64,000 bases of DNA, from NCBI GenBank assembly GCA_012401045.1, contig GCA_012401045.1_4704.1; one strand, 5' to 3'. How positions within the stretch are numbered: position 1 is the first letter of the stretch; the number at the start of each line of letters is the position of its first letter. The notes below the pieces were generated by a model. The model searched no databases. It worked only from the letters and a program-made list of their open reading frames with translations, and was not told where the DNA came from. Position numbers and translations under genes: made by a program. This document shows positions 6,320 to 60,439 of this stretch, in pieces. The DNA comes from a phage.

Positions 6320-6383
6320 AGCCTCAAAAAAAAAAAACGAAAAAATAGGAAAACGGCGTTCATCCCTAAAAAGGATGAACGCC
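6320..6383 (-). terminator. intrinsic terminator (minus-strand sense)
   Basis: Perfect 11-bp stem 6355-6365/6373-6383 (GGCGTTCATCC...GGATGAACGCC), followed on the minus strand by a long T-run (A12 on plus strand at 6326-6337). Confidence 0.75.
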
Positions 6384-6404
6384 GCGTACCGTTATATCGA
6401 ACGA

Positions 6405-21241: not shown

Positions 21242-21874
21242 TCAAGACTTCACGACGCATTCGACTTCGTCGTTCATATAAGCTTCGTATAACGACAGCA
21301 CTTCCTTCATTTTAATTTCGGGTAACGCAACGGAACGAATCGCTTTCAGGATATTCCGTGTTTGATGGTGTTTAACCTTCGCTTCACGGGATTTACAGAA
21401 TTGACGGATACAGGTATTAACCTTACCCCCTTCCGCACGTTCGAGGGCAACATGCAGTTTCAGGTCCAGTAATACTTCCGTGAGTTCCTGGGTGGCAGGA
21501 TCGTTACGAATAAGTCGCACCGTCCGTTCATCCGGATTCAACATCGTGAGGAACTGAAGCTTGATCTGTTCAGGTACGGGTTTCGTGTTCATCATGATGG
21601 CGTCAAACTGTTCCTTAACATCCAACTCATTGAACACATAACGTTCGATGTGTACGACGTGTGCTTTTCCCGACTCACCGTAAATCGCCATCGCACGATA
21701 GTCATCGAACAACACGACATACATCAGATCTTGTTCCGGTCCGATGGTACCATCCATGAGCTTCGGGGCGTGTTTCCTAAAGAAGCCGTAGCGAACCGCT
21801 TCATCCGGCATGAGCGTCCACGCATTAACGGGCTGTTTTACGAGTTCCATGTAACACCTCATCAAGATTATCAC
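21242..21874 (-). CDS. hypothetical protein
   Basis: 210-aa ORF; no motif recognised. Confidence 0.5.
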   Translation of the reverse strand: MIILMRCYMELVKQPVNAWTLMPDEAVRYGFFRKHAPKLMDGTIGPEQDLMYVVLFDDYRAMAIYGESGKAHVVHIERYVFNELDVKEQFDAIMMNTKPVPEQIKLQFLTMLNPDERTVRLIRNDPATQELTEVLLDLKLHVALERAEGGKVNTCIRQFCKSREAKVKHHQTRNILKAIRSVALPEIKMKEVLSLYEAYMNDEVECVVKS

Positions 21875-22133
21875 TTACGCCAGGCGGTACCACAATACCG
21901 GTACGAATCACAGCAGCAACTTCCTGCATGCCCTTACCCTTCAACGCATAGGTTTCATGTACCACATTACGTCGAGTCGTTAATCCAACAAATTTACATA
22001 CAACCATGTTGTTTTCTGAAAGATAAGCGGTGTCGAGTTCACCGTGCAACAATTCTTTTTCTTTGGTATCAATACCTAATAACGCAATTTGATAAGCAGA
22101 AAGTTTCCAATAACGCATAATCGTCCTATTCAT
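21825..22133 (-). CDS. hypothetical protein
   Basis: 102-aa ORF overlapping neighbours at both ends; start uncertain. Confidence 0.35.
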   Translation of the reverse strand: MNRTIMRYWKLSAYQIALLGIDTKEKELLHGELDTAYLSENNMVVCKFVGLTTRRNVVHETYALKGKGMQEVAAVIRTGIVVPPGVSDNLDEVLHGTRKTAR

Positions 22134-22953
22134 AAACTATCAAATATTCTGAAACCAAGTTTCTTGTTTCTACTTTTGCCGAAATCGTTCTTCGTACAGT
22201 TACGGGGTACAATTTTGTCGCCGAACTATAAATCTCTTCAGTCAACGCACAAGCACTGTTGCTAATGATTGTAGGAATTCCCCGCGAGCGCAAGTTGTCA
22301 GCCTTTTCTGCAAGATAACGATGATCGTCTAATGTAAACCCCTCTTGAGTATAGCCCGTAAACGATGCGGTGGGGGAAATGGGAATATAAGGAGGGTCGC
22401 AATAAACGACGTCACCCGGAACCACCTTTTCAAGATGCTTCTGGAACCCACCACTTACAATTTCTACCCCCCCCCCCTCGACGAAGGCAGCCTGAAGATG
22501 GTTCGCTGCCAGACGCAATTCCTGTTTCGGGAAATAGACGGTCTTATACCGCCCATGCGCAACATTAAATAAACCATCACGATTATAACGACATAAGCCA
22601 TTGAAACCGTAACGGTTTAAATACATGAAGCAAACTGCGCGTTCCCACGGATCTTCAGCGCGGTTAAAACGTTCACGTATCTCGTAGTAGCTTCTGACGT
22701 CGGTAGGATCCGTTTGAAAAAGACGTTCCACTTCTTCGATGAAAGATTCTGGACGCGCTAGCAACGCAGACCATACTGAGAGAATATCCTCATTCGCATC
22801 ACCTATCGAATACGCTGGGTACTTAAGAGCAAGCGTAACAGCGCCGGAACCAACGAATGGTTCAACAAGACGCTTTCCTTTAGGTAACACTTTTTCAAGC
22901 TCAGGGATAAGCCTGGTTTTGTTCCCAAGCCATTTAAGAAATGTTCTGCTCAT
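22126..22953 (-). CDS. dam: DNA adenine methyltransferase, Dam family
   Basis: N-terminal FLKWLGNK (Dam KWAGGK-like), EPFVGSGAV (FxGxG SAM motif) and catalytic DPPY; co-linear with E. coli Dam over its length. Contains an internal G11 tract. Confidence 0.85.
   Translation of the reverse strand: MSRTFLKWLGNKTRLIPELEKVLPKGKRLVEPFVGSGAVTLALKYPAYSIGDANEDILSVWSALLARPESFIEEVERLFQTDPTDVRSYYEIRERFNRAEDPWERAVCFMYLNRYGFNGLCRYNRDGLFNVAHGRYKTVYFPKQELRLAANHLQAAFVEGGGVEIVSGGFQKHLEKVVPGDVVYCDPPYIPISPTASFTGYTQEGFTLDDHRYLAEKADNLRSRGIPTIISNSACALTEEIYSSATKLYPVTVRRTISAKVETRNLVSEYLIVYE
22467..22477. repeat. homopolymeric C11/G11 tract inside the dam coding sequence
   Basis: Eleven consecutive C on the plus strand (G11 in gene sense) encoding E-G-G-G-V in frame. 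Confidence 0.9.
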
Positions 22954-23368
22954 CGATTGGCGTTCCGATAATGTTGATGACTATTTCCGTTCGAACCGGA
23001 TTGGTCAGTACGGCCTGCATGCGTTCAAGCATTGTTGGGTTATCCGTAACCACCACATCGGCGTAACACAACGGATGGCTTTCGAACGCTTCGGTATCAC
23101 TTACTAACAGAACACCCATCACATTTACGTATTGCGGTATGCGACCACGAATGCGTTGCCACATGTCTTGAGTAAGGTCCTCGCTTTCTAATGCAACCAC
23201 AACAACAGGACTGATATTTACCGGAAAACGCGGATGCACCGTACGACGAAATGTTATCCAGTTTTCGATGTGGGATAATGCAAGTTCGAGAGAACAGCAT
23301 TTTGGAGAAATCTGTATGTTTATTTGTTGAATCAATGAACGGGGGTTTTGTACAGTCTCTTCAGCCAT
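22934..23368 (-). CDS. hypothetical protein
   Basis: 144-aa ORF; no motif recognised. Confidence 0.45.
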   Translation of the reverse strand: MAEETVQNPRSLIQQINIQISPKCCSLELALSHIENWITFRRTVHPRFPVNISPVVVVALESEDLTQDMWQRIRGRIPQYVNVMGVLLVSDTEAFESHPLCYADVVVTDNPTMLERMQAVLTNPVRTEIVINIIGTPIDEQNIS

Positions 23369-43947: not shown

Positions 43948-45402
43948 ATGAAACTTAAACAAAGCTGGAAAGACGAACTTCTCGCGTTAGTAAACAGCAA
44001 AAACAGTTTACAACTGACATTAGACGATGTAAAATTTGAACTAACGGCACCGGTAAGCGAAGTGCCTGGAACGGTCGTTGTTACAATCAAACCGAACGAT
44101 AATAGTCGCTACTTTAACGAGCAGTCTCTGACCTACATCCGTCGAGACATCGCTAAAAACTTCACTGGGATCCCGTTACGGGTCATCGTTAAAAAAGATA
44201 CCGCTGTAAGGGATATCATCAATACGATTGCTGAACGTTACGGATTGGTATTTGACACAGCCGTCGACTTCCTCGAATCCGAGCTGAATAAACAAATTAC
44301 GTTCGCAGACACCGGTATTAAAGACATTACGGTTCCGGTTGCAAACACGTCTTATGTTTGGGCGGGTAATCTTCAGTTCAATATTGCTAACGATACGTTA
44401 AGCTTGATTACTATCATCAAGAAAACCGATCTTACGAATCTGGTTTATCTGGATGGTGTTGAAGCTGACACATCTGGTTCGTTACTATTAGCAACCGCAG
44501 CACTTGTTAACGAACACGTAAATGAACCGATGGTTGAAAACGAAGATATCGTTAATGAATTTATTAACGTTCTTAATACTCTAGCCAAATATGGTGACAT
44601 AACCGGCGATGAATTAGATGCCGCCTTACAAGCGTACGATGAAGCAGAAAACAGGAATAAAACCACGGTAATAACTCTTGGTGATATCCAGTGTGTTGCA
44701 ACAGAAAAAGACGATTGGGAAATTGGACGTTTACGCGGTCAGATGGTTCTCGCGCTCAAATCCGATAAATACCCGGAGCCCGATAACACGTTCAGGTTGT
44801 TTACGAATGGTGGTGACGTATCGCTAACGTTAAACACAATGAAAGATATAAGTATCGATTGGGGTGATGGGAATAAAGTAACGTTGGATGCTGAAGAAAG
44901 ATACGCGCACCACACATACGCCGACAATAACCAGTACCAAATCGAAATTGTGTCTCGTACGGACCCAGATGTGCTGCGACCAAATTATATTTCTGGGAGT
45001 GAGATAACCGAAGTAATTCACTGGGCTACTACTTCAACAATAGCTCTGAATTTTGTTGGATGCGATAATTTAGCGACTGTTCCAGATGAGATCCCAACTT
45101 CGTGGACAACGTTGGACAGCATGTTTGAAAGTTGTACGAATTTGAATGATCCGTCTATCTCTAACTGGAATACAAGTAACATCACATCAATGAATGGTAT
45201 GTTCGGCGGATGCACTAAATTTAACCAACCTTTAGCTGCCTGGGATGTCAGCTCAGTAACTGACATTGGTGGTATGTTTAACGGATGCAACAGTTTTAAC
45301 CAAGATTTAAGTGGGTGGCGATTACCGTCAGGAGTAACCCACGACAATTACGATAGTGGTGCTTTCTCGTGGCAGACGGAACATAAACCGACGTTCCAGT
45401 AA
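43948..45402 (+). CDS. DUF285/BspA-like repeat protein, paralogue of 31..1785
   Basis: N-terminus KLKQSWKDELLALVNSKN parallels STVYPEWKADLLALVNRKN; C-terminal repeats NWNTSNITSMNGMF...FNQPLAAWDVSSVTDIGGMFNGCNSFNQDLSGW. Confidence 0.65.
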   Translation: MKLKQSWKDELLALVNSKNSLQLTLDDVKFELTAPVSEVPGTVVVTIKPNDNSRYFNEQSLTYIRRDIAKNFTGIPLRVIVKKDTAVRDIINTIAERYGLVFDTAVDFLESELNKQITFADTGIKDITVPVANTSYVWAGNLQFNIANDTLSLITIIKKTDLTNLVYLDGVEADTSGSLLLATAALVNEHVNEPMVENEDIVNEFINVLNTLAKYGDITGDELDAALQAYDEAENRNKTTVITLGDIQCVATEKDDWEIGRLRGQMVLALKSDKYPEPDNTFRLFTNGGDVSLTLNTMKDISIDWGDGNKVTLDAEERYAHHTYADNNQYQIEIVSRTDPDVLRPNYISGSEITEVIHWATTSTIALNFVGCDNLATVPDEIPTSWTTLDSMFESCTNLNDPSISNWNTSNITSMNGMFGGCTKFNQPLAAWDVSSVTDIGGMFNGCNSFNQDLSGWRLPSGVTHDNYDSGAFSWQTEHKPTFQ

Positions 45403-45462
45403 AAAAAAAATAGTTAGCCTATCTTCCTCCCTACCCATAACGGGCGGGGAGGAAGGTTTTAT
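45401..45462. terminator. bidirectional terminator between convergent genes
   Basis: A10 run, stem CTTCCTCCC/GGGAGGAAG, then TTTT; sits between the plus gene ending 45402 and the minus gene ending 45474. Confidence 0.65.
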
Positions 45463-57059: not shown

Positions 57060-58646
57060 TTAGAAGTTGCCTTTGGTAGTTACCGCATCCACCAGGTTAA
57101 ACAAATCAACGCTCAGCTTATACACCTCCTGCTGGCTACGGTTGAGCAGCGGGCTGTATGCAGATGGGTTGATGTTCGGCATGGTGTACGGAATCGGTGC
57201 AGAACCGTCAACGCTGATCTTGAACTGGCTGTCCAGGAACAGGTTAATCGCGCCGCTCACCATAACCGCATTCGGGTTGTTGCCCAACATGGAGGGTAGG
57301 ATATTGGTAATCATGTCAGAACGCATTTGTTCAGCAGCACGGTTACAATCGTATCCTTTAATGAACGGCACAGCGTCGGTAACCGCAACCGCCCACTGAC
57401 CAGGCATGATACCGAGTTCTGGGTGACCATGGTTGTCAGCAATGAAACGGAACGATTCCAACATGCGGTATGTCATCGCAGCAGGCATCATTGCAGCAAG
57501 CGATGAACAATACAGCGTTGGATAATCGATCACATCCCAGCTCTGGCTATCGGTCGGCATCCAACCAAACTCGGTGGTTGCTGATGTACCACGACGAGCT
57601 TCCACATACGGGAATAACGTTAAGACATCACGGATATGTTCACCGAACATCCGTTTCATGTCAGCCCAACTCAGGCTACCGCTGAAAGCGAATCCTTCAT
57701 CACGCATAATCGCACCGAATACCGGATGCGCAACCAGAGGTTCTTCACGAACAGCTTGAGCGGCTTCCACGTAAATATCCTCGTTCTCTGCGCTACCTGG
57801 ATGAGACCCGCTTTCGTACGTCTGACGAATAGCACCAACATTATCGAAGGCTTTTCTTAGATAAATGGTTGGGATGTTCGTATCGGCACTAGCGGGTTTG
57901 ATTTTCTCTGTTGCGAAACACATTGCCGCTTCCACACCACGGAAAACCGGTTCCGGTTGCGGTGGGTAGGATGTACGATGAACCACATCAGCGTAGGCGG
58001 GATCGAACTGTTGCATCACGTTCTGCATGGCTGGGTCCATGAACTGGTTATCAAAACCACCATTGCCTACCCAACGTGCTGTTGATGCATAGGTCAGCGT
58101 ATCCTGAACACGAGTACTGAACTGAACATCACGATTAACAGGGTCGTATGCGCCGGTCAACAGGTTCGTTGCGTCCATCGGGGTTGCACGAACGATTTGC
58201 TTACCGAACATATCCGTTGTGGTTGTTTCGGTTACCTGGATTACGTTCGTGAAGAAGAACACCAGTTCATTCGGCAGATCGATAGCACGCGTTGTAAACG
58301 CATCGAGGCTTACAGAATGGTCGGTGTATCCAGAAATGTAATGGACACGCTTGGTTCCTGGTGCGAGGGCCAAGGATTCTTCTACCGCCATCATGAAATG
58401 GAAACGGCGTGTGCCCCAACCATTCGCAATCTCCGAAACCCCCTCAGGTTCTGCAGACTGCTGCAACAAACCGGTTGCAAGCTTATTGATTGCTGATGGT
58501 GTTGTTGCCGTACCGAACCGCGTCGTGTTAATGAAGTCTTCGATGCTACGCATGCTATCTGCGTGGAATCGTAGTGGACGACGTTGTACGTTGTTGTACG
58601 GTGCGGTTTCAACCATCAGTATTTCACGAACATTCATCGGGATCAT
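57060..58646 (-). CDS. hypothetical protein (528 aa)
   Basis: AAGAGGA RBS then A-run before ATG; coupled to the upstream gene (ATGA overlap). Confidence 0.5.
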   Translation of the reverse strand: MIPMNVREILMVETAPYNNVQRRPLRFHADSMRSIEDFINTTRFGTATTPSAINKLATGLLQQSAEPEGVSEIANGWGTRRFHFMMAVEESLALAPGTKRVHYISGYTDHSVSLDAFTTRAIDLPNELVFFFTNVIQVTETTTTDMFGKQIVRATPMDATNLLTGAYDPVNRDVQFSTRVQDTLTYASTARWVGNGGFDNQFMDPAMQNVMQQFDPAYADVVHRTSYPPQPEPVFRGVEAAMCFATEKIKPASADTNIPTIYLRKAFDNVGAIRQTYESGSHPGSAENEDIYVEAAQAVREEPLVAHPVFGAIMRDEGFAFSGSLSWADMKRMFGEHIRDVLTLFPYVEARRGTSATTEFGWMPTDSQSWDVIDYPTLYCSSLAAMMPAAMTYRMLESFRFIADNHGHPELGIMPGQWAVAVTDAVPFIKGYDCNRAAEQMRSDMITNILPSMLGNNPNAVMVSGAINLFLDSQFKISVDGSAPIPYTMPNINPSAYSPLLNRSQQEVYKLSVDLFNLVDAVTTKGNF

Positions 58647-60235
58647 TTTATTTTTTTTCCTCTTAAATTTACTACGTGTTCATTTAATCGAACAACTAAT
58701 TGCACAAGCTGCTGACGGATATCTGCTGGACAAAGCATCAATCCTTTACGGTCAGCTGGGACTTTCTCAAGGATTTCCGGGCCTGCTGCTGAAACATCCC
58801 AGTCCCATTCACAAAACGCATCGGCCACCATGTTAATACCGACAACCGGTAAAGTTGTACGTTCATCTTCATACATGGCGTGTGGATACAATTTATTGAC
58901 AGTAATGATCTCCTGTGGTTTTAATTGGTGGATAATCTGATAAACATCGTCGCGTTTGACCTGGATACCTACGGTCAGCGCGGCCAGTTGAGGAAAACCC
59001 CAATGGTCTAACAAACAAGCTGCGATCGCTAACGCTTTTGCCTGATGCACGGCTTCAATCGGTGCCAGACTTCTCGCCGGAAGATGGCTATCAAGCAACC
59101 ATTGCGCCAGTGCTCGGCATCCGCGGTTGATTGGTTTTAACTCAACGGTGTCATCGTGTTTAGCGTACGTGTATCCGTCGTAACGTTTTGCGATACGCGC
59201 ATACATGTCTTCAACTTTACCGTAAGGTGCCGTTTCGTCGACGTCGTGCAACACACGTTCCATCTGGGTAAGATACGCAATGTCGAGAATGAGTACACGT
59301 GGTGAACGTTTATCTTTCACCATCAACGCATCAATCACGCCTTGACTGTCTTCATCTTGCGCATTCCCTCGCGGCGTTTTCTCGCGAATCGGTCCGCTGA
59401 AACGTCGTTCCGTACAAAGGTTATTCACATAGCTGAAGATCAGTGTTACTAGATGCGTACAACTCACTAACACCCCATCTTTAACGACAGGCTGTACAGC
59501 TTGGTCCAAGTCGCGTACGGCGAGACGGCGGACGATGGCTTGTGAACGCAACCAGCCGGGCACTTTCTCCGTCGACATGTAATCCACGGTCATCGACAGC
59601 GTGATCTTTTTATCACCCGTCTGTGCGCGGATATAGTCTTCCAGTCGGTCGTAAGCGGCGATATCATGAATGCGTGTTTTATACATCAACGACATAGCCA
59701 CTTCTTCTTTACGAACCGTTCCGTACGTTTTCCCTGCGTCAATCAGAAACTCTGCCCAAATCGGCACCATCAGACGGACGTAGATCGCTAACGCCGTTAA
59801 CTCAACGTAATCATTTCGTAAATAGGTTTTCTCAGGTATGTCATCCTCACCTAATGTTGTTTTCATGTCCGGTGGTAATTTTACCCAACCTGGGGTATTA
59901 CACAATGCCAGAATCTCTTCGTACACAACCGGTTTGTAAATTTCACCAACAGCGCGACTCAACTCCTCCATTTGTTGTTGTGGAGCAATGTAGTTATCCA
60001 TCGCTTCACGTGCTTTAACGAACCCTTCGAAGATGTCGTCAATTCGACGTGGGTTCTTTTGTTCTATCCAGGCGAGATACTTGTTAATCTCCCGCATCTG
60101 ATTGCTAGCCATATCCCCATCAATCTTGATGTAACCCTGACCTGAAAATTCCACAGTACGTCCATCACGGTGTTTGATGAGATAGTGATCCAGCTTTTCT
60201 TTTCCTTGCGTCGTAATGACGGGCACTATGTGCAT
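58643..60235 (-). CDS. hypothetical protein
   Basis: Track ORF trimmed to ATG at 60235 with AGAGG RBS; conserved motif ~56 nt upstream. Confidence 0.5.
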   Translation of the reverse strand: MHIVPVITTQGKEKLDHYLIKHRDGRTVEFSGQGYIKIDGDMASNQMREINKYLAWIEQKNPRRIDDIFEGFVKAREAMDNYIAPQQQMEELSRAVGEIYKPVVYEEILALCNTPGWVKLPPDMKTTLGEDDIPEKTYLRNDYVELTALAIYVRLMVPIWAEFLIDAGKTYGTVRKEEVAMSLMYKTRIHDIAAYDRLEDYIRAQTGDKKITLSMTVDYMSTEKVPGWLRSQAIVRRLAVRDLDQAVQPVVKDGVLVSCTHLVTLIFSYVNNLCTERRFSGPIREKTPRGNAQDEDSQGVIDALMVKDKRSPRVLILDIAYLTQMERVLHDVDETAPYGKVEDMYARIAKRYDGYTYAKHDDTVELKPINRGCRALAQWLLDSHLPARSLAPIEAVHQAKALAIAACLLDHWGFPQLAALTVGIQVKRDDVYQIIHQLKPQEIITVNKLYPHAMYEDERTTLPVVGINMVADAFCEWDWDVSAAGPEILEKVPADRKGLMLCPADIRQQLVQLVVRLNEHVVNLRGKKIK

Positions 60236-60290
60236 AACAACCTCTTTTCGCGGTTCCCTGTTAAAACGTCTTCTGTGACGTCTACCACAA

Positions 60291-60310
60291 AGGTAATATA
60301 AGCGTGAATA
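60291..60310 (-). promoter_or_regulatory. conserved upstream motif copy 3 (candidate phage promoter)
   Basis: AGGTAATATAAGCGTGAATA shares the GTAATATA-N3-GTGAA core; ~56 nt upstream of the start codon at 60235. Confidence 0.35.
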
Positions 60311-60439
60311 ATTTTGGATTCCGGCTGAGTTATCGCTCAGCATGCAAGGCATCCCGCCGAAGCGAGACACCTTGCACTAACGGAAAATATTCGCGTTACC
60401 TTCTGAATCGAAGACTCAGAATGCGATGCTAAAGCATGA

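Follow-up and report, generated by a model that had tools for sequence, protein, structure and literature searches.

The idea that phages carry contingency loci is very recent and stems from laboratory work on T2 and T4 (bioRxiv 10.1101/2025.10.21.683753). Here we describe a candidate from natural sequences, an uninterrupted run of eleven G residues (G11) within the dam gene of a phage related to Escherichia phage vB_EcoM_Goslar. The gene is carried on contig GCA_012401045.1_4704.1 of GenBank assembly GCA_012401045.1, of which we analyzed a stretch of 64,000 nucleotides, hereafter the window. An initial sequence-only reading had singled out this run as a possible slipped-strand switch of Dam or simply a hotspot for sequencing error. 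From the comparison with relatives presented below we consider it probable, with moderate confidence, that G11 is a phage contingency locus that toggles an accessory orphan Dam of a Goslar-like jumbo phage.

The nearest functional analogue is the alpha-glucosyltransferase gene agt of phage T2. Frameshifts of +/-1 in an A9 repeat toggle this enzyme, the repeat reverts approximately 1000-fold faster than a point mutant, and switching hedges between TgvAB, which targets modified DNA, and McrA/BC, which target unmodified DNA (Gomez, Barrick & Waters, bioRxiv 10.1101/2025.10.21.683753). In both cases a mononucleotide run lies in a DNA-modification gene of a lytic coliphage, where a change of one base is predicted to inactivate the gene and so to give a mixture of modified and unmodified genomes. 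The T2 run is shorter and composed of A, the enzyme is a glucosyltransferase, and both reversion and a fitness trade-off have been measured. Here, in contrast, a G11 run lies in an orphan Dam gene of a nucleus-forming jumbo phage, and the evidence is comparative, consisting of natural G9-G13 alleles.

Hypermutable polyG tracts of the same length range (G7-G11) are reported to split stocks of the Fletchervirus phages of Campylobacter into ON and OFF subpopulations (Sorensen et al. 2021, Cell Rep 35:109214). The tracts described in that report are located in receptor-binding protein genes and alter host recognition, not DNA modification, and they occur in a low-GC Campylobacter host and phage setting in which polyG switching is pervasive. 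A poly-G run in a phage DNA-methylase gene has one precedent in Bordetella phage BPP-1, which according to the citing preprint (10.1101/2025.10.21.683753) was noted but not studied (Liu et al. 2004, J Bacteriol 186:1503); BPP-1 differs in being a temperate podovirus with another methylase. In bacteria, the phasevarions based on Type III mod, Type I, and Type IIG genes of Haemophilus, Neisseria, Helicobacter, and Campylobacter (e.g. PMC4889913, PMC3936762) follow a similar logic, as a repeat in a methyltransferase open reading frame (ORF) frameshifts methylation ON or OFF and some strains carry 'locked' repeats that have been interrupted or lost. Phasevarions, however, involve chromosomal restriction-modification genes that rewire host expression, whereas the window encodes a viral orphan Dam-family enzyme. 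E. coli Dam (2G1P, 4GOL), T4 Dam (1YFJ), and phi80 damL share the fold and motifs of the window Dam, but none of them has the FVEGGGV insertion described below or a homopolymer. The phi80 damL gene (JX871397 / NC_021190) is a dam homologue annotated as a frameshift-disrupted pseudogene.

A G11 tract controls the reading frame of dam

The dam ORF is located on the minus strand at 22126..22953 and encodes a protein of 275 residues that profile matches place in the Dam family (D12 class) of N6-adenine DNA methyltransferases. The copy in the window is in frame (ON). The tract occupies 22467..22477 on the minus strand (C11, uninterrupted, on the plus strand), corresponding to gene nucleotides 477-487, and extends from the third base of the E159 codon through G160, G161, and G162 to the first base of V163 (GAG GGG GGG GGG GTA). 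Position, codons, and profile matches all agree with the initial description of an in-frame G11 that encodes E-G-G-G-V within a Dam gene. The tract is held by a clade-specific seven-residue insertion, F-V-E-G-G-G-V (codons 157-163; 22465..22485, minus strand). The catalytic motif IV, D-P-P-Y (residues 186-189; 22387..22398, minus strand), is 3' of the tract, 24 codons further on.

By chance, approximately 0.008 C-runs of at least 11 would be expected in the 64-kb window, where the G11 tract was observed. It is also the sole C/G run of six or more. GGG accounts for 16% of the Gly codons here, and the probability of GAG followed by three GGG codons, calculated from codon usage, is approximately 0.0013.

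The frame logic can be read directly from the DNA. When slippage was simulated in the window dam, the loss of one G (G10) or the gain of two (G13) brought a TAG stop at 22464..22466 (minus strand) into frame, with products of 162 and 163 residues, respectively. The gain of one G (G12) brought a TGA stop at 22430..22432 (minus strand) into frame and gave a product of 174 residues ending in ...EGGGGRNCKWWVPEAS. All three products end before DPPY, and this motif is missing from every out-of-frame variant. The initial expectation that a one-nucleotide change would truncate Dam before its catalytic motif is therefore correct, and the predicted products exist in public data: the simulated G10, G12, and G13 products match proteins P0144, P0135, and P0147 with one mismatch each, and these are found on 7, 7, and 4 contigs. 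Natural alleles that use the TAG stop are L240, L253, and L255 (G10) as well as L079 (G13), a member of the 77% clade in which the stop is 4 codons past the tract. Alleles that use the TGA stop (G12) are L238, L239, L242, L243, L247, and L254.

We considered whether the shifted alleles might instead reflect programmed recoding, in which ribosomal frameshifting or transcriptional slippage would allow out-of-frame alleles to yield full Dam, or the in-frame allele to yield two products. Homopolymer runs can promote RNA-polymerase slippage, and G GGG GGG formally fits the X XXY YYZ heptamer. A GTG also follows directly on the tract in the 77% clade, and in shifted alleles gene callers predict from it a 113-residue C-terminal protein, MEIVSGGF...DPPY... 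(L079 2486..2827; P0152, P0154, P0155). The G run directly 5' of this GTG is a possible Shine-Dalgarno-like element, and the shifted alleles of the 77% clade may encode a split, two-piece Dam; the codon at this position in the window is GTA, to which this does not apply. Against recoding, the complete enzyme can be read in frame 0 from the G11 allele, so that no change of frame is required, and the natural alleles are shifted both ways, by +1 and by -1 (or +2), with no single conserved shifted architecture. No stimulatory structure was seen, although none was sought. Efficient transcriptional slippage is known from A/T runs, which also counts against recoding at a run of G. We regard recoding as very improbable.

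Tract length varies among close relatives

Close relatives were found by anchoring on both proteins that flank dam in the window, the homologues of Goslar gp124 and gp125. Their Dam proteins are 77-100% identical to that of the window and come from metagenomes, Logan assemblies of SRA runs, and NCBI isolate assemblies. We read the tract DNA in every relative fetched; the samples are independent, and the assemblies are consensus calls. Counted by sample, G11 was found seven times (including the window), G12 six times, G10 twice, and G13 once. The in-frame G11 allele is present in the window, SRR10049324 (in which dam is identical to that of the window), GCA_043942905.1, GCA_025823825.1, ERR13071153, SRR29290921, and ERZ1026852. 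The out-of-frame alleles are G12 in ERR4228819, ERR11836920, SRR19505510 (a contig present in 4 samples), ERR14767807, GCA_020395325.1, and GCA_020241865.1, G10 in SRR15841266 (Logan) and ERZ27264763 (ENA), and G13 in JACXXQ010000003.1, a 209-kb contig of the 77% clade. Over the remaining 817 bp of dam, just 1-3 substitutions separate several G11 and G12 carriers from the window, and G10, G11, G12, and G13 tracts all occur among relatives whose dam is 0-3 substitutions away from it. The 77% clade itself contains G13, G10, G12, and A-G9 alleles, and the lengths across all relatives span G9-G13.

Interrupted tracts were found in several lineages. Those that keep the frame are G6-A-G4, G3-A-G2-A-G4, G5-A-G5 (Gly>Glu), G4-AA-G5 (Gly>Lys), and A-G9 (Gly>Arg), and one interrupted allele, G6-A-G5, is out of frame (SRR29937321, SRR29937339). 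The G>A interruptions can be read as locking dam ON. The sequence-only reading had named a comparison with related phage genomes as a check, with an invariant tract as the outcome adverse to a switch. The tract is not invariant, and the G10, G11, G12, and G13 alleles among relatives support the proposal that a slippage-prone run acts as a switch of Dam.

At the protein level we examined 56 members of the Dam cluster, which do not constitute a random sample: 26 are full length, 20 are cut short exactly at the tract, 2 have lesions away from it, 4 are contig-end fragments beside it, and 4 are C-terminal pieces called 3' of a shifted tract. The lesions away from the tract are an in-frame deletion of 18 residues (KAGKLRSQGIPTIISNSA) in P0166 and a frameshift just past DPPYIPI, at a C5 run, in P0169, both on contigs of 241-243 kb. 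These two proteins indicate that dam is also lost by other routes, far less often than at the tract. When 3.3 kb around the locus was aligned for 8 relatives that differ by 33-183 substitutions per pair (2 for L247 versus L254), the tract was the only internal site with indels. Since G10 and G12 each sit on divergent flanks, the length changes recur.

A technical origin of this variation has to be weighed, with one true tract length everywhere and the differences produced by Illumina or PCR indel errors and by the choices of assemblers at a long poly-G. Short-read chemistry is error-prone at long G runs, and the assemblies are short-read consensus sequences. Contigs end in or within approximately 10 nt of the tract (L244, L245, L246/L258, and L259, from Logan and NCBI SKESA-type assemblies), and the NCBI 'partial' Dam proteins P0139-P0142 lie on either side of it; such breaks would be the outcome of mixed lengths within a sample, and also of poor poly-G reads. 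In P0132 (EGRGWGG*), P0133 (EGVGG*), and P0168 (EGKGGG*), mostly from short or low-coverage contigs, the tracts are longer and oddly mixed and imply G>T or G>A changes plus several additional G residues. These are probably read errors at poly-G, and some of the public variation is then technical.

Errors of this kind do not readily explain the remainder. G12 was found in two NCBI contigs of approximately 240 kb, 2 substitutions apart in 3.3 kb, and in four Logan runs, with one G12 Logan contig present in 4 samples, while a Logan and an ENA assembly both have G10. P0135 and P0144 are each present on 7 contigs. A frameshift is also carried by the interrupted G6-A-G5 allele, which has short sub-runs and was recovered from two runs, and the 3.3-kb region is otherwise free of indels. 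The suggestion of a sequencing-error hotspot may thus hold for the tract call of any single assembly, but it does not account for the same out-of-frame length in independent samples or for the G6-A-G5 frameshift. As a general explanation we consider a technical artefact improbable. The natural ON and OFF length alleles, with the flanking ORF intact, are direct observations.

Purifying selection maintains dam on either side of the tract

Removal of the additional bases from the out-of-frame alleles L002, L003, and L079 restored a full Dam with no other defect. For the part of dam upstream of the tract, the ratio of nonsynonymous to synonymous substitution rates (dN/dS) is 0.11, and for the downstream part it is 0.15. 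The low downstream value indicates that the catalytic half is maintained, even though it is untranslated in OFF alleles. We also considered that dam might be a decaying pseudogene, and this is ruled out by the dN/dS values together with the intact downstream ORFs of the OFF alleles. These comparisons, with the 3.3-kb alignment above and the age of the tract described below, argue that dam is alive and that its OFF states are recent. At the level of sequence the locus has three features expected of a contingency locus: it contains a long repeat, its close relatives include both ON and OFF states, and the OFF alleles are intact apart from the tract.

The tract is common to both dam clades despite saturated synonymous divergence between them (dS > 2), which indicates that it is ancestral, or at least old. 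Identity at 4-fold degenerate sites between the clades is 0.32-0.39, from which the probability of keeping all four synonymous sites of the tract is approximately 0.02-0.04.

Several observations, in addition to the short-read and mixed-tract concerns described above, weigh against a selected switch. Roughly half of the lineages have an interrupted tract and dam is missing from Goslar, so the switch has not been kept throughout the group. In the main clade, the synonymous sites of the tract change at an approximately neutral rate. OFF states were found in 9 of 16 uninterrupted versus 2 of 10 interrupted tracts, a difference that is not significant (Fisher p = 0.11). The in-frame slippage alleles G8 and G14 were found in none of the relatives. 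A literature search for GATC methylation in nucleus-forming phages was empty, and it returned neither a selective agent for Dam ON versus OFF nor a candidate pair of opposing defences.

Much of this would also be expected if the tract were a non-adaptive mutational liability. Slippage would then be real and the tract without a selected role, dam would be dispensable, and OFF alleles would be neutral or mildly deleterious dead ends, with lineages gradually fixing interrupting substitutions or losing the gene. The dam-less Goslar genome, the near-neutral synonymous change within the clade, the non-significant association of OFF states with uninterrupted tracts, and the two lesions off the tract (the 18-residue deletion of P0166 and the frameshift of P0169) are compatible with this explanation, and the occurrence of at least five different interrupting alleles, two of them arising through non-synonymous changes, fits selection against instability. 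A mere liability accounts less well for a tract that resides in a dedicated clade-specific insertion and has been kept across saturated synonymous divergence (P ~0.02-0.04) despite the rarity of GGG codons. OFF alleles are very common, yet none has decayed further, and with the downstream half under purifying selection (dN/dS 0.15), OFF lineages must revert or be continually replaced. We consider the liability explanation unlikely, albeit the most serious of the alternatives.

The window encodes a distinct phage Dam

The window protein matches PF02086 (D12 N6-adenine methyltransferase) over the complete profile (positions 1-253 of 253) with 202.7 bits versus a cutoff of 22 (1e-59), and the window ORF scores 256 bits versus a cutoff of 114.85 for TIGR00571 'dam'. 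Against NF008152, the equivalog profile of the host housekeeping Dam, the window ORF scores 270.7 bits, which is below the cutoff of 441. The closest non-phage relatives are 44-49% identical. Judged by profile scores and identity, the window Dam is a distinct phage lineage and not an equivalog of the host housekeeping enzyme.

Among proteins of solved structure, the best match is to E. coli Dam (2G1P/4GOL), with approximately 44% identity over the full length (E = 2e-68). The S-adenosylmethionine-binding motif E-P-F-x-G-x-G is present as EPFVGSGAV at residues 31-39, in invariant alignment columns. The residues of E. coli Dam that contact GATC are reportedly K9, Y119, L122, R124, and P134 (Horton et al. 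2006). In our alignment K9, L122, and R124 are conserved, Y119 is replaced by F, and P134 is replaced by A (NVAHGRY). GATC specificity of the window Dam is likely from this alignment. In the allele P0004, residues 129-136 read FNTPYGWY in place of FNVAHGRY in the window, and this local divergent patch (TPYGW) brings the Pro back; it may represent a recombination tract or variation relevant to specificity.

GATC is under-represented in the window, with 283 sites observed versus 438 expected from a second-order Markov model (ratio 0.65). Among the 16 four-base palindromes only CTAG has a lower ratio (0.62). The depletion hints at past selection on Dam or GATC sites in this phage group.

As the initial reading had stated, E. 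coli Dam has no equivalent of the run: both 2G1P and 4GOL align with a gap at the tract position and carry no insertion there. The FVEGGGV insertion is likewise missing from all 47 of the 47 nearest Dam homologues outside the Goslar-like group. An AlphaFold (AF2) model of the window Dam, with a mean predicted local distance difference test (pLDDT) score of 90.7, places a helix at residues 143-158, a tight turn at E159-G161, and a strand at 162-166, such that the insertion (157-163) spans the end of the helix, the turn, and the start of the strand. Natural in-frame alleles place E, R, or K in the E159-G161 turn. The loop therefore tolerates change, and it is the nucleotide run, not the Gly3 peptide, that is the conserved oddity.

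dam is an accessory gene of Goslar-like phages

The 20-kb stretch around dam is 94% identical to Escherichia phage vB_EcoM_Goslar (NC_048170), a jumbo phage that forms a nucleus (Chimalliviridae, Goslarvirus), and by this similarity the window belongs to a Goslar-like phage of the same nucleus-forming type. The gene is tightly packed on the minus strand with conserved genes on either side. The upstream neighbour (22934..23368, minus strand), a 144-residue homologue of Goslar gp125, overlaps the start of dam by 20 nt at its end, and the downstream neighbour (21825..22118, minus strand), a 97-residue homologue of gp124, starts 8 nt past the dam stop. In Goslar NC_048170, the 850-bp segment that holds dam (22119..22968) is replaced by 33 bp at the gp124/gp125 junction (L001 5432..5464). 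With only these 33 bp at the same place in Goslar, dam counts as accessory in this group of phages. We examined whether the 33-bp junction could be a remnant of the 5' end of dam. MAFFT aligned the two loosely, but a local alignment gave this idea no support. Both deep dam clades share one insertion site, and for this reason parsimony favours loss in Goslar. The presence/absence polymorphism of the 850-bp segment may reflect such a loss.

Isolate assemblies with a close dam are from E. coli, Salmonella, and Shigella, often with contigs of approximately 240 kb, and the locus is always the same. This agrees with two recent accounts of Goslar-like phages as frequent 'passengers' in assemblies of bacterial isolates (237 genomes in PMC12768965; also 10.1101/2024.12.31.630880), neither of which mentions dam or frameshifts. 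A megablast search with dam of phage GenBank records, PLSDB plasmids, and complete E. coli genomes returned no match. A tblastn search with Dam of phages, together with scans of IMG/VR and of GTDB representative genomes, returned nothing above 44% identity.

Across the window, 68 of 71 ORFs of at least 100 residues are on the minus strand, an extreme strand bias. The other long homopolymers of the window are A/T runs. A12 at 6326..6337 (T12 on the coding minus strand) is 15 nt 3' of a 15-bp terminator-like hairpin at 6385..6353, A10 is found at 45401..45410, and T8 (58651..58658) lies inside the last few codons of the minus-strand ORF 58643..60352. A12 and A10 were considered as further switches and discarded, as both are intergenic and A12 follows the terminator-like hairpin.

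Discussion

The proposed contingency locus would operate as follows. By analogy with simple-sequence repeats, slipped-strand mispairing during replication of the phage DNA would add or remove one or two G residues at a high rate. G11 would keep the frame and give full-length Dam. G10 and G13 would terminate at the TAG directly past the tract, and G9 and G12 at a TGA 11-12 codons on, and in either case the catalytic DPPY half would be lost. The change would be heritable and presumably reversible, so that dam toggles between ON and OFF, and a phage population, as well as the lineage as a whole, would be expected to be a mix of Dam+ and Dam- genomes. Virion DNA would then be methylated or unmethylated at Dam sites, probably GATC, and some lineages would escape the instability through the G>A changes that interrupt the run. 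Behaviour of this kind is suggested because the tract is located in a tolerant clade-specific loop, has been kept through deep divergence, and belongs to a protein that is under purifying selection.

Whether the tract has evolved as a switch is a separate matter. We put forward only tentatively, as a possibility short of an even chance, that it allows Goslar-like phages to bet-hedge the methylation state of their own GATC sites. A possible payoff would be a hedge against two kinds of host or defence, those that cut unmethylated DNA and those that sense methylated DNA. Alternatively, switching might tune a carrier state in E. coli, Salmonella, and Shigella isolates.

There are practical consequences for the handling of these phages. 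Automated annotation splits or truncates dam in many assemblies, and the assemblies themselves break at the tract. In any stock of such a phage, whether therapeutic or experimental, both Dam+ and Dam- genomes should be anticipated.

The dam tract adds a natural ON/OFF polymorphism to the phage contingency loci proposed from the laboratory, with both states distributed across dozens of public genomes of one phage group. The mechanism is familiar, and it is the setting that is new: a nucleus-forming virus of dam+ hosts that persists in bacterial isolates. Goslar-like phages replicate inside a protein nucleus thought to shield their DNA from restriction, and their hosts already carry Dam. A Dam of their own is unexpected in this group. 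If the tract has indeed evolved as a contingency switch, the window Dam would be the first orphan Dam of a virus to be described as phase-variable, and dozens of independent public genomes would illustrate phage contingency loci in natural populations.

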